Of a DNA stretch of 64,000 nt, positions 1,832-62,973 are shown piece after piece. The notes under the pieces are model-generated. The model did not search any database and was not told the DNA's origin. It saw only the letters and a program-made list of their open reading frames with translations. Source of the DNA: Dehalococcoidia bacterium. GTDB taxonomy: Bacteria; Chloroflexota; Dehalococcoidia; Lucifugimonadales; UBA3495. The stretch is from assembly GCA_965221385.1 (NCBI GenBank), contig OZ244885.1, forward strand, positions 1,718,757-1,782,756, written 5' to 3'. The translations under genes were made by a program, and so were the position numbers. The number at the start of each line of letters is the position of its first letter. Position 1 is the first letter of the stretch.

Positions 1832-1884
1832 TGAAATTTCCCCCTTGACGGCTGGGATTGCACATATATAGCGTAAACATTGTC
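1832..1884 (+). promoter_or_regulatory. Promoter/operator motif copy 1, upstream of the terminase-portal module
   Basis: TTGACG (1845-1850), 18 bp spacer containing GGATTGCAC, TAGCGT (1869-1874); 37/53 ungapped identity to 53521-53573. Confidence 0.75.
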
Positions 1885-1919
1885 AGACCGGCCCGGGACA
1901 TGGGTCGGTCTTTCCTTTC
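1885..1919 (+). terminator. Leader hairpin plus pyrimidine tract (attenuator-like)
   Basis: AGACCGGCCC-gggacat-GGGTCGGTCT stem (one G-U pair) followed by TTCCTTTC, immediately after the promoter motif. Confidence 0.55.
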
Positions 1920-1962
1920 GGGCAAACACCCATCTCTCACCAATTTCCTGGAGGTTCACCCA

Positions 1963-2190
1963 TTGCAATGTCGCCGTTGTAATTCCCCTCGACTGATCCG
2001 GCTCAAGGTCTTCCGCGCTGGTGACCATCTTGTTCTGCGCTGCCAGGAATGCGGGTGCCTGTTCAGCCCCGCCCAGCCGGCCGAGGCACCCATGCCTTCG
2101 CAGCCCGGTGGTTCCCATAATTCCAGGCTCCGGCGGGTGGAGCCACGTTCCGCCGGCGCGCAGAACCTACCCGCGCCCCAGGAGGCATAG
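1963..2190 (+). CDS. Small Zn-ribbon protein (two CxxC pairs), first gene of the packaging module
   Basis: GGAGG at 1950-1954 then TTG start; CRRC...CQEC; stop lies 6 bp before the terminase ATG. Confidence 0.6.
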   Translation: MQCRRCNSPRLIRLKVFRAGDHLVLRCQECGCLFSPAQPAEAPMPSQPGGSHNSRLRRVEPRSAGAQNLPAPQEA

Positions 2191-2196
2191 CAGCCA

Positions 2197-3684
2197 ATGG
2201 CAGGAAGACGACGAGCCGGACCGGCCGTTAGAGAAGTTGCGCAACCGGAAGGCAAGCCGGACCCCACAGCTATGCCCACCGGAGCAGGGGAGAGGGATAC
2301 AGCGGCCGCGCCGCTCCTGTCTCCCGTGGAGTTTGCGGAGAGTGTGCTGGGCGTCCGGTTGTGGGCCAAGCAGCAGGAGTTGCTATCCGCCCTGCCGGTA
2401 CATCGGAGGGTGGCGGTCAAGTCGGGAAACGGGTTGGGCAAGGGATTCAGCGCGGCGGTGGCCGTGCTGTGGTTCTTATACTGCCACAACCCGGCCATAG
2501 TGCTGAGCACCGCGCCCACCTTCCGGCAGGTGCGCCACATCCTCTGGCGGCAGATTCACAGCCTCTACCGCCGCGCGCCCCAGACCCTGGGCGGCAAGCT
2601 GCTGGACACCCGTTGGGAGCTGGCCGACGACCGCTACGCCATGGGGCTGTCCGCCGACACCGCCGACCAGTTCCAGGGATTTCACAGCCCCAACATGCTG
2701 GTGGTGGTGGACGAGGCCGAGGGGGTCAGCGACCTGATATACGAGGCCATCGAATCGGTGATGACCTCGGCGGAAACCCGGCTGCTGCTCATCGGCAACC
2801 CCACCACCGTGTCGGGGATGTTCCGTCGGGCCTTCCACGAGGAACGGGAAATCTACCATTGCATCACCATTTCGGCGTTGGACAGCCCCAACGTGGCAGC
2901 CGGACGGGTGGTGGTTCCCGGCCTGGCCACCGCCCGTTGGGTGGAGGAACGACGGCAAATCTGGGGCGAGGGGAATCCCCTGTTTCGCGCCCGGGTTTTG
3001 GGCGAGTTCCCGGACCAGGCGGAGGACAACCTCATCCGGCTTTCCGACGTGGAGGCGGCGGTGGAACGCTGGCGGGGCGCACAACCGGGCATGGGCGGCC
3101 TGGCGCAATCAGATTCAACGGCGGACACCCTGGAGGAACCGGACACCCTGGAGGAAGAGGTGGTGCTGGCGGTGGACGTGGCCCGCTTCGGCTCGGACCA
3201 CAGCGTCATTCTAAAGCGCCGGGGCAGTCGGGTGGAGGAAATACGCACCTTCAACGGCATGAACACCATGGAACTGGCCGGTTGGGTGGCCGCCGCCATA
3301 CGGGAATGCCAGCCCCTGCAGACCTGCGTGGACGAGGTGGGCGTGGGCGCCGGGGTCGTGGACCGGCTGCGGGAGCAGGGTTACGGTGTCCGAGGGGTCA
3401 ACGCGGCCCATGCCGCCCGCCAAAAGGAAACCTTCGCCAACCTGCGCGCCGAGGCCTATTGGCGCCTGCGGGAACTCTTCGTCGCCGGCAGCATCGCCAT
3501 CCCGCCCGACCAACGGCTGATGGGAGAACTGGCCTCGCTGCGGTACGGATTTGACAGCCAGGGCCGCATCCTGATGGAGAGCAAGGACGAAATGCGCAAG
3601 CGGGGCGTATCCTCGCCTGACCGGGCCGACGCCCTGATGTTGGCCTTTTCCTCGCCGTCGAGCCGGCCCCGGCTTTGGATCTAA
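2197..3684 (+). CDS. terL: Phage terminase large subunit
   Basis: Walker A VAVKSGNGLGKG, Walker B VVVDEAEG, LLIGNP coupling motif, RNase H-like nuclease LAVDVARFGSD ... SPDRADALMLAF. The start may be 2272. Confidence 0.92.
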   Translation: MAGRRRAGPAVREVAQPEGKPDPTAMPTGAGERDTAAAPLLSPVEFAESVLGVRLWAKQQELLSALPVHRRVAVKSGNGLGKGFSAAVAVLWFLYCHNPAIVLSTAPTFRQVRHILWRQIHSLYRRAPQTLGGKLLDTRWELADDRYAMGLSADTADQFQGFHSPNMLVVVDEAEGVSDLIYEAIESVMTSAETRLLLIGNPTTVSGMFRRAFHEEREIYHCITISALDSPNVAAGRVVVPGLATARWVEERRQIWGEGNPLFRARVLGEFPDQAEDNLIRLSDVEAAVERWRGAQPGMGGLAQSDSTADTLEEPDTLEEEVVLAVDVARFGSDHSVILKRRGSRVEEIRTFNGMNTMELAGWVAAAIRECQPLQTCVDEVGVGAGVVDRLREQGYGVRGVNAAHAARQKETFANLRAEAYWRLRELFVAGSIAIPPDQRLMGELASLRYGFDSQGRILMESKDEMRKRGVSSPDRADALMLAFSSPSSRPRLWI

Positions 3685-3818
3685 CGGGGGTTCATCCCCG
3701 CTCGTGGGTCCGCCGGCCATGCCGAAGGCACCAACCCAGAACATACAGGTCATTATGCCGAACCCGAACCAACCTATCCTGGCAATCTACTCTTCCACAC
3801 GAAAGGAGGACTTCTGCA

Positions 3819-5132
3819 ATGAACTTTGGAGTTACCACCTGGCCCGAAAAACTGGCAGCCCTGGCGGGACTGGTCAGACCCGTTCGCCCCGGGCCGGCGA
3901 GCGCCGAACGCAACGCCGCCGCCAGCCAGGTTCGCCGGGGCCGGCGGGCCGTTGGCGCTGGCCTGGATCCCCTGGCGGAGACTTTCGGCGCCGGTTCCGG
4001 CTGGGCCCGGCCCGAATACGGGGCCTACTACACATCATCGGCGCCGGTGTACGCCGCCATCAAGCTGCGGGCCGATGCGGTTAGCCGACCCGCGGTGCGT
4101 CTCTACCGCCAGAACCCCGACGGTTCCCGCACACCCGTGCCCGCCAGTCATCCCGTCAACCAATTGCTGGAGCAGGTCAACCCGTGGCATACCCGGGGCG
4201 ACCTGTGGCAGGCCACGGAAATATACCTGAATCTGTGGGGGCAGGCCTTCTGGGCATTGGAACGAGACGAGGAGGGTCGGCGGGAAATCTGGCCCTTGCG
4301 ACCGGACCGGGTAACCGTCCTGCCCGACCGCATGAACCACGTGCGGGGTTTCGTTTACCGCAGCCGGGGCGGCGCGCCGGTGGCCTACACCGCCGAGGAG
4401 GTGGTCTGGCTGCGCTACTTCAATCCTCTGGAGGAGTTCGCCGGCCTTTCACCCCTGGCGCCAGCCCGAATGTCGGTGGAGATGGGCGGCGACGGTCTGC
4501 GGTTCAACCGCAATTTCCTGCGGAACTCGGCCCAGCCCGATTTCGTGCTGCTGACCGACGCCCAGCTTACCGATTCGGAGATCGAGGAATTCTACGAACG
4601 TTGGGAGGCCCGGTACCAGGGGCCGCAGAATGCCCGCCGCCCGGCCATCGCCAACTTTATCAAGGACATCCGCACCCTGGGGATGAGCCATAGAGACATG
4701 GACTTCATCCGGGGGCTGCGCTGGAGCCTGGAGGAGGTGAGCCGGGCCTTTGGGGTGCCGAAGCCCCTGCTGGCCGACCTGGAGCGGGCCACCTTCGCCA
4801 ACATCAACGCCGCCGAGCGAATCTTCTGGCGAAACACCATTGTGCCGGAGCTGCGCTTCCTGGAGGAACACCTGAACCGGATGCTGCTGCCCCGGCTGGG
4901 CTACCCGGATTTGGTCCTGGAGTTCGACCTGAGCACCATCGAGGCGATGAAGGAGGATGAGGACCACCGGGTGGCGCGCCAAGTACAGTTGTTGGACCGG
5001 GGGGTGCTGACCGTCAACGAGGTACGCCGGGAACACAACCTGCCCGAGGTGCCCTGGGGCGACGAGCCGGGGCGACGATTCGGCAAGAATCAGGAGACGC
5101 TCTCCCACCTGCCGACGCAGGGAGATACATAG
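3819..5132 (+). CDS. HK97-family phage portal protein
   Basis: AAAGGAGG RBS before ATG 3819; motifs LWGQAFW, WPLRPDRV, NPLEEFAGLSPL, RAFGVPKPLL, ATFANI, LTVNEVRR; directly follows terL. Confidence 0.92.
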   Translation: MNFGVTTWPEKLAALAGLVRPVRPGPASAERNAAASQVRRGRRAVGAGLDPLAETFGAGSGWARPEYGAYYTSSAPVYAAIKLRADAVSRPAVRLYRQNPDGSRTPVPASHPVNQLLEQVNPWHTRGDLWQATEIYLNLWGQAFWALERDEEGRREIWPLRPDRVTVLPDRMNHVRGFVYRSRGGAPVAYTAEEVVWLRYFNPLEEFAGLSPLAPARMSVEMGGDGLRFNRNFLRNSAQPDFVLLTDAQLTDSEIEEFYERWEARYQGPQNARRPAIANFIKDIRTLGMSHRDMDFIRGLRWSLEEVSRAFGVPKPLLADLERATFANINAAERIFWRNTIVPELRFLEEHLNRMLLPRLGYPDLVLEFDLSTIEAMKEDEDHRVARQVQLLDRGVLTVNEVRREHNLPEVPWGDEPGRRFGKNQETLSHLPTQGDT

Positions 5133-5367: not shown

Positions 5368-5712
5368 ATGAGCCAACCAGAAATGCTCAAGGGAAACACG
5401 GAAACCTTGCTCTTGTCCCTGCTGTTGGTGGAACCAATGTACGGCTACCAAATCGTGAAGGAGATGAACTCCAGGAGCAGCGGTTACTTCGATTTCAAAG
5501 AAGGCACGCTATACCCCGCCCTTCATCGCATGGAACGGGAGGGGCTCATAGAGGGGCGTTGGCAAACCACCCCGGGCGGCATGCGCCGATGCTACTACAA
5601 CGTCACCCTCAAGGGCCGCTTCGTTCTGCTGGACCGGCGCGCCGAGTGGCAAAAGTTCAGCCGGGCGATGAACTCGATCATCGAACAGACGCTGGTTCAA
5701 TCGGAGCCCTAG
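5368..5712 (+). CDS. PadR family transcriptional regulator
   Basis: MLKGNTETLLLSLL..PMYGYQI..KEGTLYPALHRME..RRCYYNVT..G..EWQKF. Confidence 0.92.
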   Translation: MSQPEMLKGNTETLLLSLLLVEPMYGYQIVKEMNSRSSGYFDFKEGTLYPALHRMEREGLIEGRWQTTPGGMRRCYYNVTLKGRFVLLDRRAEWQKFSRAMNSIIEQTLVQSEP

Positions 5713-43741: not shown

Positions 43742-43967
43742 GGGGTTTTGGGGCCAGCAGGTGAGGGTTCTGCTGATTGAGTAACTGGAGCAAACTCCCT
43801 GCCTGAGTTGGGAAACGGGCCGTCGAAGAACCAATGAAGCGTGTCGTCTAGAGGTGAGGGAGGTACATATCGCACTAGAATCTTGTCGGGACTGACAGTT
43901 GCCGGTTGACCAGCGGTTAACGGGCGGTACAATACTCCCATCCCCTGCAAGCGATTAATATGTGACG

Positions 43968-44909
43968 ATGGAAACAATGCCAATTGCAGCCGGTAGCCCC
44001 ATGACCGGGATAGATTCGTTCCTTTTGGAATTGAGAAGCAGGGGAAAGCTGGATTATAAGCGTTACTTGGGGTCGCCGCTTCGCTATGCCGGGGGCAAGA
44101 GCCTGGCTGTCGGTTATGTAGTTGAGAGACTTCCCCGCTATATTGACCGGCTGGTCTGCCCCTTCATGGGTGGGGGCTCTGTCGAGATAGCCTGCGCGAG
44201 AGAGATCGGCTTGCGCGTCATCGGTTATGACGTGTTTGACATTCTGGTGAATTACTGGCAGCGTCAACTGACCGACGCCCCAGGATTGAGCGATTTGCTT
44301 CAACAGTTTGAGCCGACCAGGGAAACCTTCCGGCTTGTCAAGGAGCGGTTGTACGAGCATTGGAATGGACTGAACCAATTGCAACCTTGCGAACTGGCTG
44401 CTCACTACTACTTCAATACCCAAACATCTTACGGGCCTCATTTCCTGGGTTGGCCTTCAGACATATACCTACAGAAGAACCGGTACCAAGCCCTGCTTTC
44501 TCGGGTCAGGGACTTTTCGGCCCCGACCCTCACTGTCGAGTGCGCAAGCTTTGACGAATCTATCCCGTTGCACTCGGAGGACATGCTCTATTGCGACCCA
44601 CCCTACTTTCTTGGCGACGGCAGGATGTTCACGGGCATGTACCCCCACCGGAATTTTCCCGTACACCACGCCGGATTTGACCACGAGGGATTGCGGGACC
44701 TGCTACTGGACCATGCAGGGGGGTTTATTCTGTCTTACAATGATTGCGAAACTATCCGAGAATGGTACGCCGACTGTGAAATGTTCTGCCCGGAGTGGCA
44801 GTACACCTTCGGCCAGGGCGACACTCGCATTGGCGAAAACCGCAGCAGGGACAATGGCGGCTCCCATGTCAAAAAGTCACACGAACTGTTGATTTGGCGG
44901 TTACCTTAA
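43968..44909 (+). CDS. Dam/D12-class DNA adenine methyltransferase
   Basis: RYAGGKS, PFMGGGS, YCDPPY, ILSYND, HELLI. Confidence 0.9.
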   Translation: METMPIAAGSPMTGIDSFLLELRSRGKLDYKRYLGSPLRYAGGKSLAVGYVVERLPRYIDRLVCPFMGGGSVEIACAREIGLRVIGYDVFDILVNYWQRQLTDAPGLSDLLQQFEPTRETFRLVKERLYEHWNGLNQLQPCELAAHYYFNTQTSYGPHFLGWPSDIYLQKNRYQALLSRVRDFSAPTLTVECASFDESIPLHSEDMLYCDPPYFLGDGRMFTGMYPHRNFPVHHAGFDHEGLRDLLLDHAGGFILSYNDCETIREWYADCEMFCPEWQYTFGQGDTRIGENRSRDNGGSHVKKSHELLIWRLP

Positions 44910-45682
44910 TGGTGCGGCGGCGGGGATTTCAGAATGCAGACGAGGCCCGCGCAGTACGGGCCAGAGGCCACGAGAACGCATTAGCCTTTGCCAATGCTAT
45001 AGGTATGCCCAACGATTATCAGAATGACAGGACAGCAAAGAAGGACGTTATAGACCCTTCTGGTGATGCCCACTCCGTCAAGTCCGGTACCAAGAAGTGG
45101 CAGATATTCCTCTATGGCCGCAATCGCTTCGAGTCCGACGACGGGTTTCAGGCCCTCAATGGAGTAGGGGAATTGCTAATACACTGCCTTGACACCATGC
45201 CAGATACCTACGAGGCTTACCAGCAAGATAAGGACGCCGCTCGCAGAAAACTTCAGACGCCCATGCGTGAGCTCAAGGACCGCTTCCAGCGCAAGGCTTT
45301 GCTTAGGGCTTTCTTAATGAAGTCTATCTTCAACGGCGGAGAGGTTAACTATCTCACCGCGCTGCATGATGGGCGCTACCATGTTTTCCAGAATCTTGAA
45401 GCAGTGCGTCTAATGGGTGAGCGTTTCGAAGTTGTGAACTCCGCCGCTGTTGCACCGGGTTCCCCACCCGACCAAAAGGTACTCTTCCGAGTGGACGGTT
45501 TGAACACCGGTGAGCTGGAATTGAGGACCGATCGACTGAATTACCAGAAAGTACGTTTCAATATGATTGTCCCAAGAATTATGCAATTGCTATTATCCAT
45601 CGAGCCCATCAAGTATTTCAACGACGAGGTTGTGGCCCATGGCGAAGCCACAAGACGCTTTGGACGTTGGGCTCAGGAGTAG
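44909..45682 (+). CDS. Putative Type II restriction endonuclease
   Basis: TAATG coupling to the MTase; GHE..KKDVID..SVK resembles a PD-(D/E)XK variant; AT-richer codon usage. Confidence 0.6.
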   Translation: MVRRRGFQNADEARAVRARGHENALAFANAIGMPNDYQNDRTAKKDVIDPSGDAHSVKSGTKKWQIFLYGRNRFESDDGFQALNGVGELLIHCLDTMPDTYEAYQQDKDAARRKLQTPMRELKDRFQRKALLRAFLMKSIFNGGEVNYLTALHDGRYHVFQNLEAVRLMGERFEVVNSAAVAPGSPPDQKVLFRVDGLNTGELELRTDRLNYQKVRFNMIVPRIMQLLLSIEPIKYFNDEVVAHGEATRRFGRWAQE

Positions 45683-49691: not shown

Positions 49692-49970
49692 GTGATCCAG
49701 TCTTTCAAACATCGGGACCTAGAGTCACTTTACGACGGGCGAGGAGGTCGAAGAGTCGCTCCGGAGCATGTCGGAAAGCTGACCCGCATCCTCGCGACGC
49801 TGGACCGGAGCAGCAAGCCCCAGGACATGGACCTGCCGGGGTTTCGGCTGCACCCCCTAGCCGGCCAACTCACTGGCCACTACGCTGTTTCCGTGTCAGG
49901 AAACTGGCGGATAACCTTCAGATTCGAGGACGGCCACGCAGTCGATGTCGATTACACGGATTACCACTGA
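49692..49970 (+). CDS. higB: HigB-family toxin
   Basis: IQSFKHRDL..PGFRLHPL..SVSGNWRITF..DYH. Confidence 0.92.
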   Translation: MIQSFKHRDLESLYDGRGGRRVAPEHVGKLTRILATLDRSSKPQDMDLPGFRLHPLAGQLTGHYAVSVSGNWRITFRFEDGHAVDVDYTDYH

Positions 49971-49982
49971 GGAGGAAAACCC

Positions 49983-50276
49983 ATGCCGATGCAGAACCCT
50001 CCCCATCCGGGCGAGATCGTCCGTTACGAGTGCCTGGAGCCTCTGGGACTGACCGTAACCCGCGCCGCCCAGGGCTTGGGGGTAACCCGTCAGGCCCTGT
50101 CGGACCTGGTGAACGGGAAGGCCGGCGTATCGGTGGAGATGTCCATCCGCCTTTCCCGAGCCTTCGGCTCCACGCCGGAGACCTGGCTGGGGATGCAGAC
50201 AGCCTACGACCTGTGGCAGATACAGGAACGGGCCGAGCAAATTGAGGTGGAGGACCTCACCGCTGCTTCACGGTAG
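49983..50276 (+). CDS. higA: HigA antitoxin
   Basis: NPPHPGE..LTVTRAA..GVTRQALS..STPETWLGMQ. Confidence 0.92.
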   Translation: MPMQNPPHPGEIVRYECLEPLGLTVTRAAQGLGVTRQALSDLVNGKAGVSVEMSIRLSRAFGSTPETWLGMQTAYDLWQIQERAEQIEVEDLTAASR

Positions 50277-53328: not shown

Positions 53329-53520
53329 TCTCTCTCTTGCTCCTCTGAACTAGCTCTTCTTGAGTCTCCCGGCCCCGGGCGGCCATGGTCAACCGACCGT
53401 TCAGCTCCCGCCCTATGGGAAGCCAACGAAATTATAGCATAGCCCGGCGGCTTTGCAATATTGGGGTGACGGCTCACAAAGGGCAAGAACCCGGCAAAGC
53501 TCCGGGGAATTTGTCGGACA

Positions 53521-53573
53521 TGACAGTTCCCTGTTGACACGCAGGATTGCACGTCTCTAGCCTGAATAGTGTC
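53521..53573 (+). promoter_or_regulatory. Promoter/operator motif copy 2, upstream of the head-tail module
   Basis: TTGACA (53534-53539), 18 bp spacer with GGATTGCAC, TAGCCT (53558-53563); matches 1832-1884. Confidence 0.75.
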
Positions 53574-53659
53574 GGGTGGGAACGGTCTGCCGGTTTCCCT
53601 GACCGTAGCGCCGGAAGCCAATCGAATATCGCGGCCTCGGAACGCCGCAATGCACGCGA

Positions 53660-53690
53660 GGGACTGACCTTTGTGGGTCGGTCCCTTTTT
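53660..53690 (+). terminator. Intrinsic terminator in the 5' leader of the head-tail operon
   Basis: GGGACTGACC-tttgtg-GGTCGGTCCC-TTTTT. Confidence 0.7.
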
Positions 53691-53809
53691 GTCGTTTCCG
53701 TGGATTCCAGGGTTTATGTGGTTAACGGGGTTTCCGGGGCTTCCGGGCCCGCACGCCACCGGCGTCCACACTGCCGGCCATGCCCCGGCATACATAAGGA
53801 GGTGAAGAA

Positions 53810-54559
53810 TTGACGATGATTCCCCCGGATGGCGATTACGGGACGGCGGATAGGGACCTGCTCCTGGAGTCGCTGGAGCGATACCGGCGGGGCCTGGCCG
53901 ACGCTCCCCTGCTGCGGAAATGGAGCATGGCAAGAGCGCCCGGCGGGGAGTTGACGGCAGTGGACCATCCCGTCTCACCCCAGGGCGCGGAAGAAGCGGA
54001 GGAAACGGCAATACTGGGAGGAATCGAAGGGACTGCGGCGAAGGAAGCGGAATCCGGCTTCCCGATGACCTTCGTGATTTCCAACGAGGAGGTGGACCGC
54101 CATGGCGACGTGGTGCTGGCCCGGGGCTGGCGACTCCAGGCCTACCTGAGCAACCCCGTGTTTCTCTGGGCCCACGACTACGGCCGGCCCGCCATCGGTC
54201 GCTCCCTGGCGGTTTGGACGGAACGGGCGCAATTAATGGCCCGCATGGAGTTCGCGCCCACCGCCTTCGCCCGCGAGGTGGCCGCCCTGTATCGCACCGG
54301 CTACCAGCAGGCGGTGTCGGTGGGCTTCAGGCCCCTGCGCTACGAGGAACGGCGCGACGAACGTACCGGCGCCTTCCTGGGCATCCGTTTCCTGGAGCAG
54401 GAACTGTTGGAGGTGAGCGCCGTCCCGGTGCCGGCCAATCGCCATGCCCTGCGCCGGGGGCTGGAAAAGGGGGAGTCCCCAGGGCCGGCGCCGGAAGTCC
54501 CCCTGCCCTTAGACCCCTTGAGGGAAGTGCTGGCGGCGCTGCGGTCCGCCGCCCGGTAA
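53810..54559 (+). CDS. HK97-family prohead protease
   Basis: VDRHGDVV, NPVFLWAHD..PAIG, VSVGF, LLEVSAVPVPAN; AAGGAGG RBS. Confidence 0.92.
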   Translation: MTMIPPDGDYGTADRDLLLESLERYRRGLADAPLLRKWSMARAPGGELTAVDHPVSPQGAEEAEETAILGGIEGTAAKEAESGFPMTFVISNEEVDRHGDVVLARGWRLQAYLSNPVFLWAHDYGRPAIGRSLAVWTERAQLMARMEFAPTAFAREVAALYRTGYQQAVSVGFRPLRYEERRDERTGAFLGIRFLEQELLEVSAVPVPANRHALRRGLEKGESPGPAPEVPLPLDPLREVLAALRSAAR

Positions 54560-54671: not shown

Positions 54672-56003
54672 ATGACCCTGGCAACTCACGATATTGAACT
54701 GATCAAGCGGGAGGTGGCTGGTATTCGGGACTTCTACCAGTCCCGGATGGACGCCGAACTGCCGCCCCTGCAGGAGGAGGTGGGACGCATCGCCGCCCAG
54801 TTGGGACAGGTACAGGAACAGTGGCGGGACGGGGAGCGGCGGGCCCTTCTCTCCAGGTACGGCGGCGACGACCGGCCCCGGGTAACCCACGGCAAGTACC
54901 GGGGCATGGATGCCCTGTCGCTGGCCTACGTGCGCAGTGTGCTGAACGCTCAACTGCGGGAGCCGGCCGGCCTGAATCAACGCGCCCTGGAGGAATGGCA
55001 GAACAATCTGAAGGCCGCCATGGACAGCGCCACCGCCGGCTCCGGCGATGAGCTGGTGTCCACCGCCGAGGCCTCCGCCCTGTGGAGCGACGTGAACCTG
55101 GAGACCCTGATTGCGCCCCTCTTCTCGCGGGTGGACATGCCCACCAACCCCTTCGAGATTCCCCTGCAACTGGGCGGCGTCAACTGGTATCCGGGGAGCG
55201 AGAACACGGCGGTCACCGGCTCCGCTCCCGCCACCACCCGCCAGACCCTCACCGCCCACGAGCTGGTGGCCGAGGTTCCCTGGTCGCTGACCCTGGACGA
55301 GGATGCCGTCATCGCCATGGCCGAGGAGGTGCGCAGCTCCCTGGTGCGGAACGCGGTGGAGGTGATCGACGACGTGCTGCTGAACGCCGATGCCACCGCC
55401 GCCAACAACATCAACGCCGATGGGGCCACCATCAGCGCAACCACGGCCAGGAAGGGACACCTGCTCCTCGGCTTCGACGGCCTGCTGCACCTTCCCCTGG
55501 TGGACAACACCACCCAGGCCAACAACCACAACGCCGCGGTCAGCGATGGCATGTTCAACGAGATTCGCGGCAAGCTGGGCAAGTACGGCGTCCGGCCCTC
55601 GGAACTGGCCTACATCATGGACGTGAACACCTACATCAAGTCCCTGACCGTGGCCAACTTCCGCACCCTGGACAAGCTGGGCGGAAACGCCACCCTGCTG
55701 CGGGGTCAACTGGGCGCGGTGGAGGGCATACCCGTCATCGTCTCGGAGCAGATGGCCACCGCCGATACCGACGGCAAGGTCACCAATGACGGCACCGCCA
55801 ACACCAAGGGCCGTCTCCTCATCACCAATCGCACCCAATGGCGGCTGGGGTACCGGCGGGAGCTGCTCATCGAGACCACCCGCGACATCCAGAAACGGCA
55901 GAACATCATGGTGGTGAGCATGCGGCTGGCCTTCATGGAGCGCACGGGCAGCCGCTCCACCGCCACTCATACCGCCCTGCAGTACAACATCACGGGCGTC
56001 TAA
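54672..56003 (+). CDS. HK97-fold major capsid protein
   Basis: Follows the protease; GAGGAGG RBS; helical N-terminal delta-like region, GDELV, LLNAD..GFDGLL, GAVEGIPVIVSEQM. Confidence 0.85.
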   Translation: MTLATHDIELIKREVAGIRDFYQSRMDAELPPLQEEVGRIAAQLGQVQEQWRDGERRALLSRYGGDDRPRVTHGKYRGMDALSLAYVRSVLNAQLREPAGLNQRALEEWQNNLKAAMDSATAGSGDELVSTAEASALWSDVNLETLIAPLFSRVDMPTNPFEIPLQLGGVNWYPGSENTAVTGSAPATTRQTLTAHELVAEVPWSLTLDEDAVIAMAEEVRSSLVRNAVEVIDDVLLNADATAANNINADGATISATTARKGHLLLGFDGLLHLPLVDNTTQANNHNAAVSDGMFNEIRGKLGKYGVRPSELAYIMDVNTYIKSLTVANFRTLDKLGGNATLLRGQLGAVEGIPVIVSEQMATADTDGKVTNDGTANTKGRLLITNRTQWRLGYRRELLIETTRDIQKRQNIMVVSMRLAFMERTGSRSTATHTALQYNITGV

Positions 56004-56106: not shown

Positions 56107-56952
56107 ATGACCAATGCCTATTGCGACCTGGCAACCCTCAAATCCGCCGGCGCCCTCAACATCACCGGGGGCCTGTACGACCGCCGCCTGCTGGCCCTGC
56201 TGGAGGAGGCGTCGCGGGTAATCGACGGTTTCTGCAACCGCCACTTCTACCTCCTGCACACCACCCGCCGGTTCGAGACGGCCCCCTGGACGGGCCCGGT
56301 TCAACAACTGCTGGTGCCAGACCTGGCCCGGGCCGACACCGTCCGGGCGGCGAGCGTCCCGTCCGGACCAGCGCCGGAGGAACCCGACTGGCAGTCCATC
56401 GCCCATACCCTCTGTCCCCTGGACGCCGCGCCGGACCGTCACTGGGGGCGTCCCTACACCCGCATAACCCTGGGCCCCCTGACCGGTCCGGCGGCGCGCC
56501 GGGGCGGCCCAACCCTGATCCAGGTGGCCGGTCGCTGGGGATACCGGGAGGTGACCGAGGACACGGGCTGCACCCTTTCGGCCCCGGCCACTGCCACCGC
56601 CACCCGGTTGAGCGTATCCGGAGGCGGCGGCCTGTCCCCGGGCCAAACCCTGGTACTGGGGGATGAGCAACTGTACGTTCACGCGGTGGATGGCACGCAG
56701 GGATCGGTGGAACGGGGCATCAACGGTTCCACCGCAGCCGCCCACGAAAGCGGCACGGCCGTACACCTGCGGGGCTACCCGGGCCCGGTGACCGAGGCCT
56801 GCCTGCTGCTGGCGTCCGAACTGTGGCACGGGCGCCATCCGGCTGCGGTGGCCTCCGAACCCGGGCCGGCCCGTTCCGGGGCGCCGCCGCCTTCGGGGTT
56901 GGGCCGCGAGGTGGAAGCCCTGCTCTCCTCCTACCGCAAGCTCGCCCTCTGA
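56107..56952 (+). CDS. Head-tail connector/adaptor (gp6/gp15-like) with inserted beta domain
   Basis: AYCDLATLK..LLEEASRVIDGFCNRHF..GRWGY..PVTEACLLLASEL..LLSSYRK. Confidence 0.75.
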   Translation: MTNAYCDLATLKSAGALNITGGLYDRRLLALLEEASRVIDGFCNRHFYLLHTTRRFETAPWTGPVQQLLVPDLARADTVRAASVPSGPAPEEPDWQSIAHTLCPLDAAPDRHWGRPYTRITLGPLTGPAARRGGPTLIQVAGRWGYREVTEDTGCTLSAPATATATRLSVSGGGGLSPGQTLVLGDEQLYVHAVDGTQGSVERGINGSTAAAHESGTAVHLRGYPGPVTEACLLLASELWHGRHPAAVASEPGPARSGAPPPSGLGREVEALLSSYRKLAL

Positions 56953-57013: not shown

Positions 57014-57433
57014 ATGACCCTGGTTGCCGCAACAAAGGACTTGGCGGAGCGGCTGGCGACGCTGCCCGGACTGCGGGTGTACACCACCCCGCCCGATGGG
57101 GCGCCGGAACTGCCCTGCGCCATTATCCAGCCGGGTCAGCCCCTGGCCGAGTACGACGGCACCCTGGCCGGCCGGGACGTAACCTACAACTTCGCCGTCC
57201 TGCTCCTGACCCGCTCGGGCCACGAGGGGCAGGCCTGGGAGGAGGTGGCCAGTTACGTTGCCCCAACCGGGTCGGCTTCCTTCAAGGCGGCGGTGGAAGC
57301 CCGGCCAGCCCAACCGGGCGGAACGGTGGACTGGTTCCGTACCCTGCGGGCCAGCGATGGAGGCCGGGTGTCCTACCGCAAGGCCGCCTACTGGGGCCTA
57401 ACCTTCCAGGTCCAGGCCTACGTTGGCGGCTAG
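57014..57433 (+). CDS. Putative tail completion/terminator protein
   Basis: 139 aa, GLRVY..P..LPCAII..F.V pattern; positioned between adaptor and tube genes. Confidence 0.6.
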   Translation: MTLVAATKDLAERLATLPGLRVYTTPPDGAPELPCAIIQPGQPLAEYDGTLAGRDVTYNFAVLLLTRSGHEGQAWEEVASYVAPTGSASFKAAVEARPAQPGGTVDWFRTLRASDGGRVSYRKAAYWGLTFQVQAYVGG

Positions 57434-57538: not shown

Positions 57539-57982
57539 ATGGCCAAGGTTCCAGTTTCCGGGCGCAGCTACATCGAGGTTGACGATGCCGGCGGGGTGGC
57601 CCGCGACCTCTCCCCTTCGGTGGCGGAGGTGGAACCCATCGGCATGCAGGTGACGGCCCTGGACGTGACCGCCCTGAACGACCGGTCGCGGCAGGTTTCC
57701 GCCGGGCCGGAGCCGGCGCAGCAGTTCACCCTGCACGGCCTGTTCGACGATACGCCGGTCACGGGTTCCGACGCGGTCCTGTCCGGCATCGTGGGCAGGG
57801 TGGTCACCGTCAGCTACGGCCCAGCCGGCAAGGGAACCGGTCAGCGCAAGGTAACGGGCCAATTCCTTTGCACTAGCTACCAGGTGGGCGGCCGGGCCGA
57901 GGGCGCCAGGAACGCCGGCCTGGTGCGCTTCGTCGCCCGGTTCCAGCAGTCGGGGTCGGTAACCCTCACCACATGGGCCTAG
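57539..57982 (+). CDS. Putative tail tube (major tail) protein
   Basis: 147 aa; DLS..LDVTALND..FTLHGLFD..YGPAG..G; AGGAGG RBS; gene position. Confidence 0.65.
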   Translation: MAKVPVSGRSYIEVDDAGGVARDLSPSVAEVEPIGMQVTALDVTALNDRSRQVSAGPEPAQQFTLHGLFDDTPVTGSDAVLSGIVGRVVTVSYGPAGKGTGQRKVTGQFLCTSYQVGGRAEGARNAGLVRFVARFQQSGSVTLTTWA

Positions 57983-58081: not shown

Positions 58082-60130
58082 ATGGCAAATCCCCACTGGC
58101 GGATATGGGTGGACTGGAACGACAACGGGGCCTGGGGCGAAAGCTCCCAAGATTATCGCGAAGACATAACCCCGGACGTGCTGGACCTGTCCTGGAGGTG
58201 GGGTATGCCCGTGGACTGCTCCCGCAACCGCCGCTGGCCGGCCCCGGCCCGCCTGTCGCTGACCCTGCGCAACGGCGGGATGACCTACACTCCGGGCAGT
58301 GCCCTTTCCCCCTTGTCCGGCAAGCTGGCGGTGGGGCGCCGGGTCTGGGCCGCCTTTGCCTATCCCTACGATGATTTTGCGCCGGAGGCCGGCGACGCCG
58401 ACGGAACCGACCTGGCCGGCCGTCTCCCGTCCCTGGGCGACGGCTATCAGTGGACCAAACGCACCACCGGGGCCGCCGGCATAACCCTCTCCCAGGGTCG
58501 GGCGAGGCCCGCCACCGGTTGGGGAGGCGCCATCTACACCCTGGATCTGGGGGACCCGGACGCCCACATTGGCTTCATCTACCGGCGCACCGGGAACGGG
58601 GTGGGCGGCGCGGCCCTGCGGGTGCAGAACCAGTGGGACTACCTGCGCCTGCGGTTCGGGGCCACCGCCACCCTGCTGGAGGATGTTACCTTCGGCTACC
58701 CGTCCATCCTGCGACGGGGCGACCCCCTGTTGGCGGGACGAGACTACTTCATAGAGATTGAACAGCACGGCGGCTCGGTGCGCGTATTCGCCACCGACCT
58801 GGCGGGCAACACCGCCGACCGCAAGACCATTCTGGGAGGCGTGTCCACCGCCGGCAACCGGACGGCCACCAGCCACGGTCTTTGGCACGACGGTACCGCC
58901 AATGCGGCCGCCGAGCGGTGGGCCGAATTCGGCGGCTGGCGCAGTTTCTTCTACGGCTCTCTGACCCACATCTCCCCGGAGCGAGATGGGGCCCTGGGTC
59001 AGGTGTGCCGCTGCCAGGCGCGGGACGACCTCCACCAGCTGGAGCAGATGCCCCTCTTCCACCTGGTAAGCGGAAGGCTCAAGACTTCGGCATCCATCGC
59101 CAACGACATACTCACCTGGTCGGGGTTCAGCCCCAGCCACCGCCGCCTGGACCGGGGCCGGACCCTGGTGGCCACCGAACCCCGGGCCCTGTGGCGAATC
59201 TCCGCCCGGTCGGCCCTGAACTCCCTGGCCGATGAGGAGGACGGGCGCATCTACGTGGACGGCCGGGGCTACCTGCGGCTGGAGTCCGCCGGCCACCGGC
59301 AGGCCGGGGCCCACACCGCCGCTCGCGCCACGCTGCGGGATACCGGAACCGGCGGGCCCAGTTTCGCCGCCCTGGACTGGAATGATGGCAGCGATGCAGT
59401 GGAGAATTCGGTGGCCTTCCGCTATCGGCTGGCGGAGAACCAGGGTACCCAGGAGATTTGGCGCCTGCGGGACGTGGCGGTCATACCCGCCGGCGAAAGC
59501 AGGGACTTCCTGGCCGAGAGCGTCGCCTACGACATGGTAGATTCCTTCATCCTTCCGTTGGCCACCACGGACTACGCCGCCAACTCCCGCGCCGACGGGG
59601 CCGGCGAAGACCTGAAGGCCAGCATTACCGTCAGCCTGCCCCACGCTGCCGCCGGCGCCCCGACCAACCCGTCGGGCCGCTACCGGGGCCGGGGGACGGT
59701 GGTGAGAGTGGCCAACAATCATGCCACGGCCACCGCCTACCTGACCCTGCTGCGGCTGCGGGCCCATCGTACCCACCAGGCGCCGGAGCCGACCAGCTTA
59801 TGGGCCGACAACGCCGCCAGCCAGACTGCCCACGGATTGCGGGATTCTACGGTGGAATGCCGGTTCATAGATCACTACGAGGCGGCCCGGGCCGGCGCCC
59901 AGAGCCGTCTGGCGCGGCGGGGACTGCCCCGACCCCGATTAACCCTGGCCATCGCCGCCGGCAGTGGCGACAACCTGGCGCAGATGGTTAATCGCACCCT
60001 GTCGGACCGGGTGAAGGTGGTGAGCAGCAACCCGACAATCAACGGAGACTTCTACATCGAGGGCATGGAACTGATCGCAAACCCCCGCACCGGGGAACTG
60101 ACTGCCCGTTGGCGGGTGGAAGGGGCCTAG
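58082..60130 (+). CDS. Putative tail-tip/hub (minor tail) protein
   Basis: WVDWNDNG..EDIT.DV, LSLTLRN, FFYG, EDGRIYVDGRG.LR, LSDRVKV..FYIEG resemble Siphoviridae minor tail proteins; last gene of the module. Confidence 0.6.
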   Translation: MANPHWRIWVDWNDNGAWGESSQDYREDITPDVLDLSWRWGMPVDCSRNRRWPAPARLSLTLRNGGMTYTPGSALSPLSGKLAVGRRVWAAFAYPYDDFAPEAGDADGTDLAGRLPSLGDGYQWTKRTTGAAGITLSQGRARPATGWGGAIYTLDLGDPDAHIGFIYRRTGNGVGGAALRVQNQWDYLRLRFGATATLLEDVTFGYPSILRRGDPLLAGRDYFIEIEQHGGSVRVFATDLAGNTADRKTILGGVSTAGNRTATSHGLWHDGTANAAAERWAEFGGWRSFFYGSLTHISPERDGALGQVCRCQARDDLHQLEQMPLFHLVSGRLKTSASIANDILTWSGFSPSHRRLDRGRTLVATEPRALWRISARSALNSLADEEDGRIYVDGRGYLRLESAGHRQAGAHTAARATLRDTGTGGPSFAALDWNDGSDAVENSVAFRYRLAENQGTQEIWRLRDVAVIPAGESRDFLAESVAYDMVDSFILPLATTDYAANSRADGAGEDLKASITVSLPHAAAGAPTNPSGRYRGRGTVVRVANNHATATAYLTLLRLRAHRTHQAPEPTSLWADNAASQTAHGLRDSTVECRFIDHYEAARAGAQSRLARRGLPRPRLTLAIAAGSGDNLAQMVNRTLSDRVKVVSSNPTINGDFYIEGMELIANPRTGELTARWRVEGA

Positions 60131-60379
60131 CCCCCGCGCCGGCACCGGCCATTGCCGGCGAAACCACAAGCCGGCAACCCCGGCAAGTACCAAAACCTGA
60201 GTCATTCGCTACGAATATTTGCCAGCAAAATATTTTCGATTTCCGTAACTGCCGGCATTTGTCCACGGATTAACAATCCGCTTTTCGGAACAAAACTTGA
60301 CGTATTGACACAAAAATGTCATTGCTCTATTATTCGCATTGCTTGTTCCGACAAAGCACTAAAGGGAGCGTACCAACCA

Positions 60380-60820
60380 ATGGATGAACTCGACAAAAAA
60401 ATAATCGCCCTGCTGCAACTGGACGGTCGGGCATCGAACGCCAAAATTGCCAGGGAAGTGGGGGTCAGCGAGGGAACCGTGCGCCGCCGGCTGCGGAAGC
60501 TGCTGGATGACGATGTGGTGAGGGTTGTGGCCGTGCCCAACCTGGAAAAGCTGGGCTTTTCCACCACCGCCCTCATCGGAATGCAGACGGGACCCGGCAA
60601 GTCGGACGTGGTGGCCGAGGCCCTGGTCAACCTGCCCGAGGCCCATTACGTGGCGGTGACCACCGGCGCCTACGATGTGTTCGTCTGGGCCGGCCTGGAA
60701 TCGGCGGAAAGCCTGGGCCAATTCCTGCGCACCAAGATCGGCCCCATCGAAGGGGTACAACGCACGGAAACCTTCGTAAACCTTTCCATCAAAAAGCGCA
60801 CCTACGGCCTGGTCCTGTAA
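60380..60820 (+). CDS. Lrp/AsnC family regulator
   Basis: MDELDKKIIALLQLDGRASNAKIAREVGVSEGTVRRR..TGAYD..RTET. Confidence 0.95.
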   Translation: MDELDKKIIALLQLDGRASNAKIAREVGVSEGTVRRRLRKLLDDDVVRVVAVPNLEKLGFSTTALIGMQTGPGKSDVVAEALVNLPEAHYVAVTTGAYDVFVWAGLESAESLGQFLRTKIGPIEGVQRTETFVNLSIKKRTYGLVL

Positions 60821-61188: not shown

Positions 61189-62973
61189 ATGAAGCTCAAA
61201 CGGCACATGAGAACCTGGTTCATTGGACTATTGGCCCTGTCGGCCCTGTTGATCATAGCCTGCGGGGGAGCGGCGGAACCCGTGCAGGAACAGCCGGCCG
61301 CGCCGCCGGCAGCAGCCCAGCCCACGGAAACACCCATACCAGACGCCCCGGCCACGGCAGCCCCCCAGGCAACGCCCCTGCCGGCCGATGTCCAGACGGC
61401 CCAGGACTCCATTGTCCTGGTGGTGCCGGAGGAGCCGGTCAACCTCAATTCCTTCCTGAGCATCGGCGGGGCGCTCTACGCCTCGATAACCCGGGCCAAT
61501 CTCCAGGACCCCCTGACCTGGCAATCGGGCGACGACCTGCGCATCGTCCCGACCAGCGCCACCGTCGGTTGGGAGCAGATCGACCCCGCCACCTGGCGCT
61601 TCTTCCTGAGGGAGGGTGTCAAGTTCCATAACGGCGAGCCCTGGAACGCCGAGGCCGCCATGCCCAGCCTTGCCTCCAACGGAAGCCAGGCCTCCGAGGG
61701 CGGCAGCATCATCTACACCGGCGCCTATGACGCCGAGGTGGTGGACGAATACTCGCTGGACATCAACTGCCAGAACGACTGTCCCATATTCCCCAGCACC
61801 TCCTTCTTCCTGGGTTTCGAAGCTCCGGGGTGGCTGGCCGCCACTCCCGAAGAGGACCAGGCTGGCACCAGCATTGGGTTCGGGCCCTACAAGCACGTGG
61901 AGTGGACGCCCGGCGTATCCATTACCCAGACGGCTTACGAAGATTACGTACCCGTCGATGACCACTTCGAGTTCCAGAAGCCCCTGATTCAGAACGTGGA
62001 ATGGCAGTGGCGCGGTGAACCCACCGTCATCGCCGCCATGATTCAGGCGGGAGAGGCGGACATGGGCTGGGACGTGGGTGTCGAACAGTTGGACGCCCTG
62101 CCGGAGGACATGCTGCGCTTCGGTTCTTCCGCAGAGACCTACTCGATGCAGATGGACACGGTGTGGCACCCGGAACTGAGCAAGGTTAAGGTGCGTCAGG
62201 CCATCGCCCATGCCGTAAACTGCCAGGAACTGGTTGAAACCCTCTACAAGGGCTACACCACCTGCCGCGGCAACATCATTTGGCCCGGCATCATCGGCGC
62301 CACCGAAGCGAATACCGCCCCCTACGAGTACAATCCCGAGCTTTCCAGGCAATTGCTGGCAGAGGCGGACTACAACCCGGAGAACACTATCACCCTGATC
62401 TCCCGCGGACAGCGGGTGGCCAAGCAGACGGAAATCTCCGAGGCGGTCCACGCCTATCTGAACGACGTCGGGATCAACTTTGAGTTCCAGATAGTGGAAC
62501 CCTCCATCCGCAGCGCCCGTTCCCGATGTGGCGTTGGTCAGGCAGTCCTCGACGTGCTGGAAGAATCGGGTCGGGACCCCCAGACCACGGAAGCCAGCCG
62601 CGAGGACATGGTTGCGGCCATCGCCAAGGGCGGCTCCAGTTGTGAAGGCATAGACATGATCGGCAACCAGCCTTCCAACGAGACCCTGGACTTTGGCCGG
62701 CAGGTGCTCTACTACATGAACTGCACCAGCCAGCGCTCCGGCGTCTGCGACCCCAGCCCCGGCGGCATCCAGGACCAGATTGACGATGCCCTGGCCGCCT
62801 CGGGGGACGAGCGGCAGCAGAAGCTCCAGGTTCTGGCCGACCGGTTCCGCGAGGAGGTGTACTTCCTGCCCCTCTTCGACCTGCCGGTCATCTACGCCGT
62901 CAACCCCAAGCTCCAGTGGGAACCCCGGCTGGACCCCACCTACCGCGTCAGCGCGATGTGGTTCGAGGAGTAG
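61189..62973 (+). CDS. ABC transporter substrate-binding lipoprotein (family 5, peptide/nickel)
   Basis: Lipobox IIAC, Pro/Ala linker, LREGVKFHNGEP, GFGPYK, VRQAIAHAVN. Confidence 0.9.
   Translation: MKLKRHMRTWFIGLLALSALLIIACGGAAEPVQEQPAAPPAAAQPTETPIPDAPATAAPQATPLPADVQTAQDSIVLVVPEEPVNLNSFLSIGGALYASITRANLQDPLTWQSGDDLRIVPTSATVGWEQIDPATWRFFLREGVKFHNGEPWNAEAAMPSLASNGSQASEGGSIIYTGAYDAEVVDEYSLDINCQNDCPIFPSTSFFLGFEAPGWLAATPEEDQAGTSIGFGPYKHVEWTPGVSITQTAYEDYVPVDDHFEFQKPLIQNVEWQWRGEPTVIAAMIQAGEADMGWDVGVEQLDALPEDMLRFGSSAETYSMQMDTVWHPELSKVKVRQAIAHAVNCQELVETLYKGYTTCRGNIIWPGIIGATEANTAPYEYNPELSRQLLAEADYNPENTITLISRGQRVAKQTEISEAVHAYLNDVGINFEFQIVEPSIRSARSRCGVGQAVLDVLEESGRDPQTTEASREDMVAAIAKGGSSCEGIDMIGNQPSNETLDFGRQVLYYMNCTSQRSGVCDPSPGGIQDQIDDALAASGDERQQKLQVLADRFREEVYFLPLFDLPVIYAVNPKLQWEPRLDPTYRVSAMWFEE

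Follow-up and report, generated by a model that had tools for sequence, protein, structure and literature searches.

A shared promoter-like and terminator-like cassette precedes two distant phage-like gene modules in a Dehalococcoidia genome

Gene transfer agents (GTAs) of the RcGTA type are phage-derived sets of head and tail genes that are vertically inherited, scattered over more than one locus, and without adjoining integrase or replication genes. Coordinated expression of such genes has models in phages themselves: in the lambdoid PR'/Q/tR' system a constitutively competent promoter is followed by a terminator before the late genes, and a promoter-loaded factor makes the polymerase terminator-resistant; in lambda N/nut and HK022 put, two related RNA stem-loops just 3' of two promoters coordinate read-through of two operons. 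For the Caulobacter GTA, GafZ is described as binding a palindrome between the -35 and -10 elements, with the polymerase then passing a terminator (PMC11150451), and for the Bartonella GTA (BaGTA) the Q21-like protein BrrG is described as acting at a strong promoter of the sigma-70 type that is followed by an attenuating leader (bioRxiv 10.1101/2024.11.20.624540). A full-text literature search, judged mostly by title and abstract, returned no description of a GTA-like element in Chloroflexi, Chloroflexota, Dehalococcoidia or SAR202. Herein we describe a 64,000-nucleotide stretch (the window, whose positions serve as coordinates throughout) of a Dehalococcoidia bacterium (assembly GCA_965221385.1, contig OZ244885.1; genome G000, 2,906,306 bp in one contig, 61% G+C), in which two distant groups of phage-like structural genes are each headed by the same short element. 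This element, a 53-bp promoter-like sequence followed by a terminator-like hairpin, is very probably the shared cassette of one functional unit. Its first copy (site 1, 1832-1884) precedes module 1, which consists of a Zn-ribbon gene and the genes for the terminase large subunit (TerL) and the portal; the second (site 2, 53521-53573) precedes module 2, with protease, capsid, adaptor, tail terminator and tail tube genes and a gene for a 682-aa protein (Table 1).

The preliminary description of this DNA had aligned the two sites by hand without gaps, and its 37 identities over 53 positions hold on recomputation. Against the window on both strands, either 53-mer gives a mean of 12.8-13.3 identities (standard deviation 3.1) with a runner-up of 27-28; over the whole genome the runner-up reaches 31, and when the 37 shared positions alone are scanned no other place exceeds 24, from which we conclude that the genome holds exactly two copies. 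As a control for shared promoter grammar, the 42 genome sites with TGA(C/A)A-N8-TTGAC were compared in 861 pairs; the highest score is that of the site 1/site 2 pair, which is identical at 28 of the 43 positions that the fixed motif leaves free, compared with 11.7 ± 3.4. All details that had been named were located, namely TTGAC (1845-1849 and 53534-53538), the 18-nt spacer containing GGATTGCAC at both places, the -10 sequences TAGCGT and TAGCCT, and the terminal TGTC, and both sites share the frame TGA(C/A)A-N8-TTGAC-N18-TAGCNT. Each copy sits between a divergent host gene and the first gene of its module. The concern that the motif might be common before unrelated genes is answered in two parts: the full element occurs nowhere else in the genome, whereas its upstream half, TGACA-N8-TTGAC, is generic. 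An additional short match, TATAGCA about 85 nt 5' of both sites, is the reverse complement of extended -10 elements; it was rejected as part of the repeat, since it belongs to the divergent promoters of the MobA-like transferase and ferredoxin genes.

The likeness extends past 1884 and 53573, into related hairpins at 1885-1911 and 53658-53687. The preliminary description saw the promoter half only and overlooked the hairpin, which is the most specific feature common to both sites. At the TerL locus it reads AGACCGGCCCG-GGACA-TGGGTCGGTCT with the tail TTCCTTTCGG, and at the protease locus it has the canonical shape of an intrinsic terminator; the stem GGGACnGACC/GGTCnGTCCC is conserved at both, a terminator scan calls the two hairpins terminator-like, their tails passing its U-tract rule (5 T in 8), and the arm pattern is found at these two loci only in the genome. 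Hairpins were gathered in an alignment of 54 sequences, comprising the window's own, 39 of the 65 distinct protease-locus matches and 14 from the TerL locus; left out were 22 with an extended GCCGG...CCGGC stem, in which the hairpin is present, and four probable false matches (L065, L105, L108 and L122). Pairing is found in 92.7% of 648 cells, compared with 86.1% in shuffled alignments and at most 55.7% when the partner was slid. GAC and CC of the 5' arm are invariant, and one pair varies freely (AU 23, CG 18, UG 5, GC 3 and UA 3). The U-G pairs, together with loops of unequal length, argue for a structure of the sense-strand RNA rather than a protein-binding DNA palindrome.

These observations bear on an explanation at the level of DNA, according to which the palindrome would serve DNA packaging, as a cos/pac-like site, or bind a repressor as its operator, and gene conversion would account for the 53-bp likeness, which would then have no regulatory meaning. 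We consider this very improbable: a packaging site has no reason to persist before the protease/capsid operon; the U-G pairs (in five sequences), the covariation and the unequal loops fit RNA and not a dimeric DNA-binding site; and many genomes besides this one keep the promoter part at the TerL and protease loci alike. What speaks for it is that the palindrome lies just before the terminase genes, a common place for packaging sites, and that the 9-nt block common to the two spacers of this genome is missing from orthologous protease loci, a pattern that a conversion patch could produce. The packaging-site or operator reading was itself rejected, on the RNA-type pairing and on the presence of the hairpin before the protease/capsid operon.

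A covariance model of the hairpin (R1), built partly from these same loci, has two matches in the source genome. In a co-occurrence sample of 41 genomes it has 38 matches with E ≤ 3e-5, and for 34 of them a TerL or protease match follows within 345 nt downstream; the four exceptions are two ordinary gene-end terminators, one site in G035 and one in a fragmented assembly in which no protease was found. The 11 genomes of this sample that lack both modules gave no match. Because the model was trained partly on the same loci, the weight lies on how few strong matches stand elsewhere and on there being none in genomes without the modules. Weaker third matches in relatives were considered as marks of a third module and rejected, as all six that were inspected are ordinary gene-end terminators of similar composition. 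One relative (G031) has ten weak-to-moderate matches and no clear modules, and may use a terminator family of similar composition. Since the strongest matches per genome lie directly upstream of the two modules, the model also offers a compact marker for metagenomes.

Within the modules themselves, the terminator scan called no other strong sense-strand site in the interior of module 2, and the three weaker sense-strand calls in the interior of module 1 equal the number expected from shuffles. An Rfam search of both leaders gave no match, and in the consensus fold of the protease-locus leader (13 sequences) the terminator is the only common structure. A separate stretch of this leader, (A/G)ACAAC(U/C)GAAUAG, is conserved in the genus about 40 nt before the terminator (window 53600-53657) and resembles CCTGAATAG just 3' of the -10 in the same promoter.

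The promoter part is likewise retained at orthologous loci, a comparison that the preliminary description had named and that comes out in its favour: the element is kept and its flank is not. Mean identity to the source genome is 30.5 of 53 positions at the TerL locus (16 relatives) and 39.1 of 53 at the protease locus (12 relatives), against 13.1 and 13.7, respectively, for the 53 nt directly upstream, which is chance level at both. Relatives share one architecture at the two loci, consisting of TGACA, 8 nt (9 at most TerL loci), TTGAC, an 18-nt spacer and TAGC(G/C)T, followed by an A/T-rich stretch and then TGTC GGG. The same frame, accepted at a score of at least 12/13, fits 64 of 80 protease/capsid loci from other Dehalococcoidia records, with N8 in 59 and the 18-nt spacer in 59 of them; the remaining loci comprise nine without a hairpin match and seven with a low score. 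Among the 64, the -10 is TAGCCT in 31, TAACCT in 10, TAGGCT in 10 and TAGTCT in 6, with others in the rest. In the two copies of the source genome the -10, placed 18 nt from the -35, matches TATAAT at three of six positions, T1, A2 and T6 being kept. The -35 region conforms to the promoter grammar common in this organism, and the constancy of the G+C-rich -10 is unusual.

A gene for a solute-binding protein (SBP) is the divergent neighbour of the protease promoter in all five relatives checked; in the source genome it lies downstream of module 2 in the same direction, and the relatives' similarity begins at the TGACA box. This placement fits an inversion of the module together with its promoter; the cassette travels with its module. 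In some protease-locus relatives (L023, L027 and L031-L034) we also observed complementarity between the 3' part of the spacer (CCCGTCCC or CCGTCTC) and the transcript start (GGGACGGG or GAGACGG), which yields an inverted repeat that brackets the -10, with one compensatory change; it is weak in the source genome.

Both modules were found in 26 genomes of the co-occurrence sample and neither in 11, leaving four discordant genomes, of which two are assemblies 83-86% complete and two rest on weak matches. All 16 genomes of the genus and 22 of 24 from the family have TerL, its identity falling from ~80% to ~60% with falling kinship, and the protease is present in 15/16 and 22/24, respectively. In an even class-wide sample the capsid gene is present in 12 of 301 genomes, and its close relatives (69-93% identity, 126 confirmed stretches) are metagenome-assembled genome records of Dehalococcoidia/Chloroflexota and one SAR202 cluster bacterium. 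In most relatives the two modules are separated, by distances that range from 13 kb to 360 kb, and a synteny comparison of 20 regions from relatives shows that only the nine genes listed in Table 1 are conserved as modules. The capsid gene evolves under purifying selection (ratio of nonsynonymous to synonymous divergence, dN/dS, 0.10-0.30 against six relatives, at dS 0.5-1.1). Identity to the nearest phage records does not exceed 38% for TerL and is ~22% for the capsid, and no integration, replication or lysogeny genes stand beside the structural genes in the source genome. Co-occurrence and purifying selection together indicate that the modules behave as one unit. The preliminary description had taken them for one regulon; the shared element, the co-occurrence and the purifying selection bear out its central idea of a single unit, while other claims had to be corrected. 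By these gene comparisons the set appears to be an old, domesticated and vertically inherited GTA-like element rather than prophage debris.

In three more distant relatives whose capsid is 48-59% identical (G275, G184 and G167), TerL lies within 3-7 kb of the capsid gene and R1 finds no match, from which it appears that the split, with its duplicated promoter-terminator cassette, is derived within the order. Another genome (G025) has a contiguous Zn-ribbon-TerL cluster beside an XRE repressor and an ImmA-like peptidase, its Zn-ribbon gene being a two-ribbon version; the homologues of this XRE/ImmA pair in the source genome are weak and lie in a serine-recombinase island and a toxin-antitoxin-rich region. 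The former of these regions (G000:C1:1096000-1113000, L147) contains two serine recombinases, an XRE/ImmA-like pair and several very large open reading frames (ORFs), and has the look of an integrative mobile element with no relation to the modules. In G001, G002, G006, G012 and G021 the TerL match is split into two or three pieces with gaps of ~100 to 3,300 nt and no in-frame stops, which could reflect an intein, intron or insertion in the terminase gene of some relatives.

One claim in need of revision concerns the spacer, which had been proposed as a shared regulator site. The block GGATTGCAC is indeed identical in both copies of the source genome, but it is absent from the protease locus of all 12 same-genus relatives, which read TGGAAAACCC or TAGATGRC in its place. 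Co-evolution of the two spacers with a common regulator was rejected on a permutation test, as within-genome matching averages 9.5 of 18 positions against 9.61 when permuted (12 genomes, p 0.69). The source genome is the sole outlier (11 against a mean of 6.55); its shared block could be a conversion patch or a lineage-specific contact, between which a single case cannot decide. A random genome has 5 instances of TTGAC-N5-GGATT and this one 13, a weak excess; for TTGAC-N11-GGATT the numbers are 4 in a random control and 28 here, probably as part of a repeat family. Nor do the regulators that had been suggested from the neighbourhood, PadR (5368-5712) and Lrp (60152-60820), hold up, as neither is conserved beside the modules. 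Further motif sites, which had been expected to mark missing loci, were found by none of the genome-wide scans for the repeat, the hairpin pattern and R1. No tape measure, tail tip, baseplate or lysis genes were found, other loci not having been searched by family.

The upstream half of the element belongs to a wider class. TGACA-N8-TTGAC occurs at 36 genome sites (in the window e.g. at 43893 and 11455), where a Markov control gives ~2, and the distribution of spacings peaks sharply at 8 nt exactly; 15 of the 36 have a TAnnnT hexamer at 16-19 nt (e.g. before the CTP synthase gene pyrG), ~11 fall in small repeat families, and many have a proper -10 at 17-18 nt. The excess varies among relatives (34 against 3 in G014, 60 against 2 in G028, 5 against 4 in G016), and the motif may be an upstream promoter element that has so far escaped notice, or a global factor of the lineage may bind there. 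Other TGACA-box promoters of the source genome have -10s of the TAnAAT type. The difference from the TAnnCT type, which prevails in nearly all of the 64 loci, is one ground for supposing that a dedicated sigma factor or activator reads the TAGCNT -10 and the spacer, so that initiation would be the switch and the hairpin a modest attenuator, an insulator or a stabiliser of mRNA. The conservation of the spacer within the genus would agree with this, as would the TerL-operon hairpin, which begins ~4 nt past the predicted start and thus practically at the 5' terminus, a position in which a stem-loop can stabilise mRNA. We nevertheless think this account unlikely, given that a housekeeping sigma factor could serve a promoter with a perfect -35 and with T1, A2 and T6 of the -10 kept, and that mere stabilisation has no need of a conserved stem sequence. 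Moreover, the hairpin of the protease loci has a canonical U-tract and is not 5'-terminal, its distance from the predicted start being 8-135 nt (median 35.5; ~90 nt in the source genome).

The reading to which we incline, if only slightly, is that a promoter and leader-terminator cassette heads both operons of a split GTA-like set whose default state is off. The -35 is strong, a terminator stands ahead of the first structural gene, both signals recur at the second operon, and there is no upstream gene for the terminator to serve; together these features follow the logic of late-gene antitermination, and the Caulobacter and Bartonella precedents favour default termination that is relieved by a trans-acting factor. 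Whether the modules are in fact controlled by antitermination we regard as evenly balanced. In such a scheme, transcripts would begin with GUCGGG and run into the conserved-stem hairpin with its U-rich tail, where by default most of them would end; a trans-acting factor would bring about read-through of both hairpins at once, and the terminase/portal and protease/capsid/tail genes would be switched on together. The factor might be loaded on promoter DNA, like Q, BrrG and GafZ, or on the hairpin RNA, and in the latter case might be the Zn-ribbon protein. The conserved sequence of the stem suggests that the hairpin itself is recognised.

Several points weigh against this reading. The U-tract of the TerL-locus hairpin is interrupted (TTTCCTTTC), and the leader hairpin could instead be a constitutive attenuator or stabiliser. 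Both promoters are missed by a simple sigma-70 consensus scan, because their -10 agrees with TATAAT at only three of six positions; promoter activity, start sites and termination at the hairpins are predictions from sequence. The TGACA box is generic in this genome and hence not locus-specific. The spacer, in which a site of the Q or GafZ type would lie, is conserved at the genus level only and not in the wider set, and is not palindromic. The antiterminator is postulated in both its existence and its identity: in the source genome the Q-family profile PF06323 reaches 12.4 bits against a cut-off of 25 and PF03589 has no match (PF06530 and fold-level similarity were not searched), and PF02357 has a single match, which leaves no second NusG-family gene of the RfaH/LoaP type.

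If a factor were loaded on RNA, as in the lambda N/boxB or phage Mu Com model, a small protein on the hairpin would prevent termination or unmask translation. The best candidate would be the Zn-ribbon protein, which is rich in Arg; as its gene follows the first hairpin, positive feedback would result. It is the only conserved non-structural gene product of either module (found by tblastn at 7 of 10 TerL loci), the residues C3, R4, R5, C6, R26, C27 and C30 of its 36-aa core are invariant, and the stem GGGACnGACC is conserved over the order-level set and both loci while one of its pairs covaries freely. Yet family, structure and partner analyses lend RNA binding no support: the protein has sub-threshold Pfam matches only, no NCBIfam match and no meaningful sequence match in the PDB, and its predicted complex with TerL scored 0.00, which is evidence neither way. 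Its position fits a small-terminase substitute equally well, and with its gene downstream of the terminator, something else must start the loop. On balance we find RNA-loaded control of this kind quite doubtful. The most specific version, in which a hitherto undescribed Dehalococcoidia GTA has hairpin-locked operons that the 75-aa Zn-ribbon protein unlocks as a new, minimal RNA-binding antiterminator, its positive feedback leading to all-or-none particle production in few cells, is more of a speculation and distinctly improbable.

Table 1 Features of the two cassettes and modules (window positions; E-values are those of the hairpin model R1)
Feature	Position	Strand	Remarks
Upstream box TGAAA, TerL-module promoter	1832-1836	+	One-base variant of TGACA, 8 nt 5' of the -35; relatives' TerL-locus promoters have TGACA here
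-35 hexamer TTGACG, TerL-module promoter	1845-1850	+	
18-nt spacer, TerL-module promoter	1851-1868	+	Contains GGATTGCAC (1855-1863); GGATTGC kept at the TerL locus in 8/16 relatives with a recognisable core
-10 hexamer TAGCGT	1869-1874	+	Predicted start near 1881-1882; missed by simple sigma-70 scan
Leader hairpin, terminator-like, TerL locus	1885-1921	+	Stem 1885-1911, 11 pairs; T-rich tail TTCCTTTCGG (1912-1921); -21.2 kcal/mol, z -2.8; E 3e-5
Arg-rich Zn-ribbon protein, 75 aa, first gene of module 1	1963-2190	+	CRRC...RCxEC; TTG start after GGAGG; disordered tail
Terminase large subunit (TerL)	2197-3684	+	
Portal protein	3675-5132	+	
Divergent promoter TTGCAA-16-TG-TATAAT of ferredoxin gene	53431-53458	-	Gene at 53328-53059; explains the TATAGCA match
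Upstream box TGACA, head-tail module promoter	53521-53525	+	Present in 53/64 loci
-35 hexamer TTGACA, head-tail module promoter	53534-53539	+	TTGAC in 64/64 loci
18-nt spacer, head-tail module promoter	53540-53557	+	Contains GGATTGCAC (53544-53552); block specific to the source genome at the protease locus
-10 hexamer TAGCCT	53558-53563	+	Predicted start near 53570-53571; missed by simple scan
Leader hairpin, protease locus	53658-53697	+	GAGGGACTGACC-TTTG-TGGGTCGGTCCCTT, 13 pairs; tail TTTGTCGTTT (53688-53697); -25.7 kcal/mol, z -4.3; E 2e-8
Prohead (head maturation) protease	53810-54559	+	
HK97-type major capsid protein	54672-56003	+	
Head-tail adaptor-like protein	56107-56952	+	
Tail terminator / tail completion protein	57014-57433	+	
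Major tail protein	57539-57982	+	
682-aa protein, last conserved gene of module 2	58082-60130	+	No named family; nearest to viral hypothetical proteins

The genes next to the modules are host genes, namely those for a MobA-like transferase, PadR, a ferredoxin, aconitase, Lrp and the SBP. The ORF at 61189-62973, which matches phrog_18374, was rejected as a phage gene, as it encodes an ABC-type solute-binding protein. A HigB-like toxin (PF05015) and an HTH_3 antitoxin are encoded at 49692-50276, 3.3 kb upstream of the protease promoter, and are not conserved in relatives. Elsewhere in the window, positions 43962-45682 form an island of low G+C content (54% against 63%) with two ORFs, the first of which has a DPPY motif typical of DNA adenine methylases; from motif and composition it is probably a horizontally acquired restriction-modification pair, and a TGACA-type promoter with TACAAT lies just upstream of it.

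If the favoured reading is right, two short cis-elements and one small protein would provide a testable handle on a particle system in an abundant and poorly cultivable group, and antitermination as the switch of GTAs, recently put forward as a rule, would extend beyond the Alphaproteobacteria; the locus would also exemplify a split of a structural cluster that was healed by duplicating a promoter-terminator cassette. Among known systems, RcGTA-type agents share the scattered, inherited gene set, with no sequence relationship beyond generic folds; here nine genes only are recognised, and the element is known from genes alone. The lambdoid PR'/Q arrangement differs in that it has one cassette on a phage instead of two on a chromosome; the present loci have no Pfam Q match above the cut-off in the genome and no confident -10-like pause element. 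In comparison with lambda N/nut and HK022 put, the hairpin here itself looks like the terminator, and no N-like protein is known. The Caulobacter GTA, as far as its GafY/GafZ control is described, offers a parallel: a spacer element recruits the antiterminator, the polymerase passes a terminator close to the beginning of the cluster, and accessory loci are co-regulated. Its element, however, is a near-perfect palindrome and its terminator follows the first gene, whereas here the spacer is non-palindromic and conserved to genus depth and the terminator precedes the first gene. BaGTA, in the available account of promoter P_bgtA-K, resembles the present set in being a domesticated phage-derived element at separate loci, with a near-consensus -35, an attenuating leader before the capsid operon and one linking factor; it belongs to the Alphaproteobacteria and the present element to the Chloroflexota; in the source genome no BrrG/Q21-like gene was found, the leader is short and the cassette stands at two structural operons. 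What is new here is thus the lineage, the duplicated cassette, in which the terminator stem is conserved in sequence, and the fact that no Q-type factor is recognisable, while the type of control itself is already known from alphaproteobacterial GTAs.

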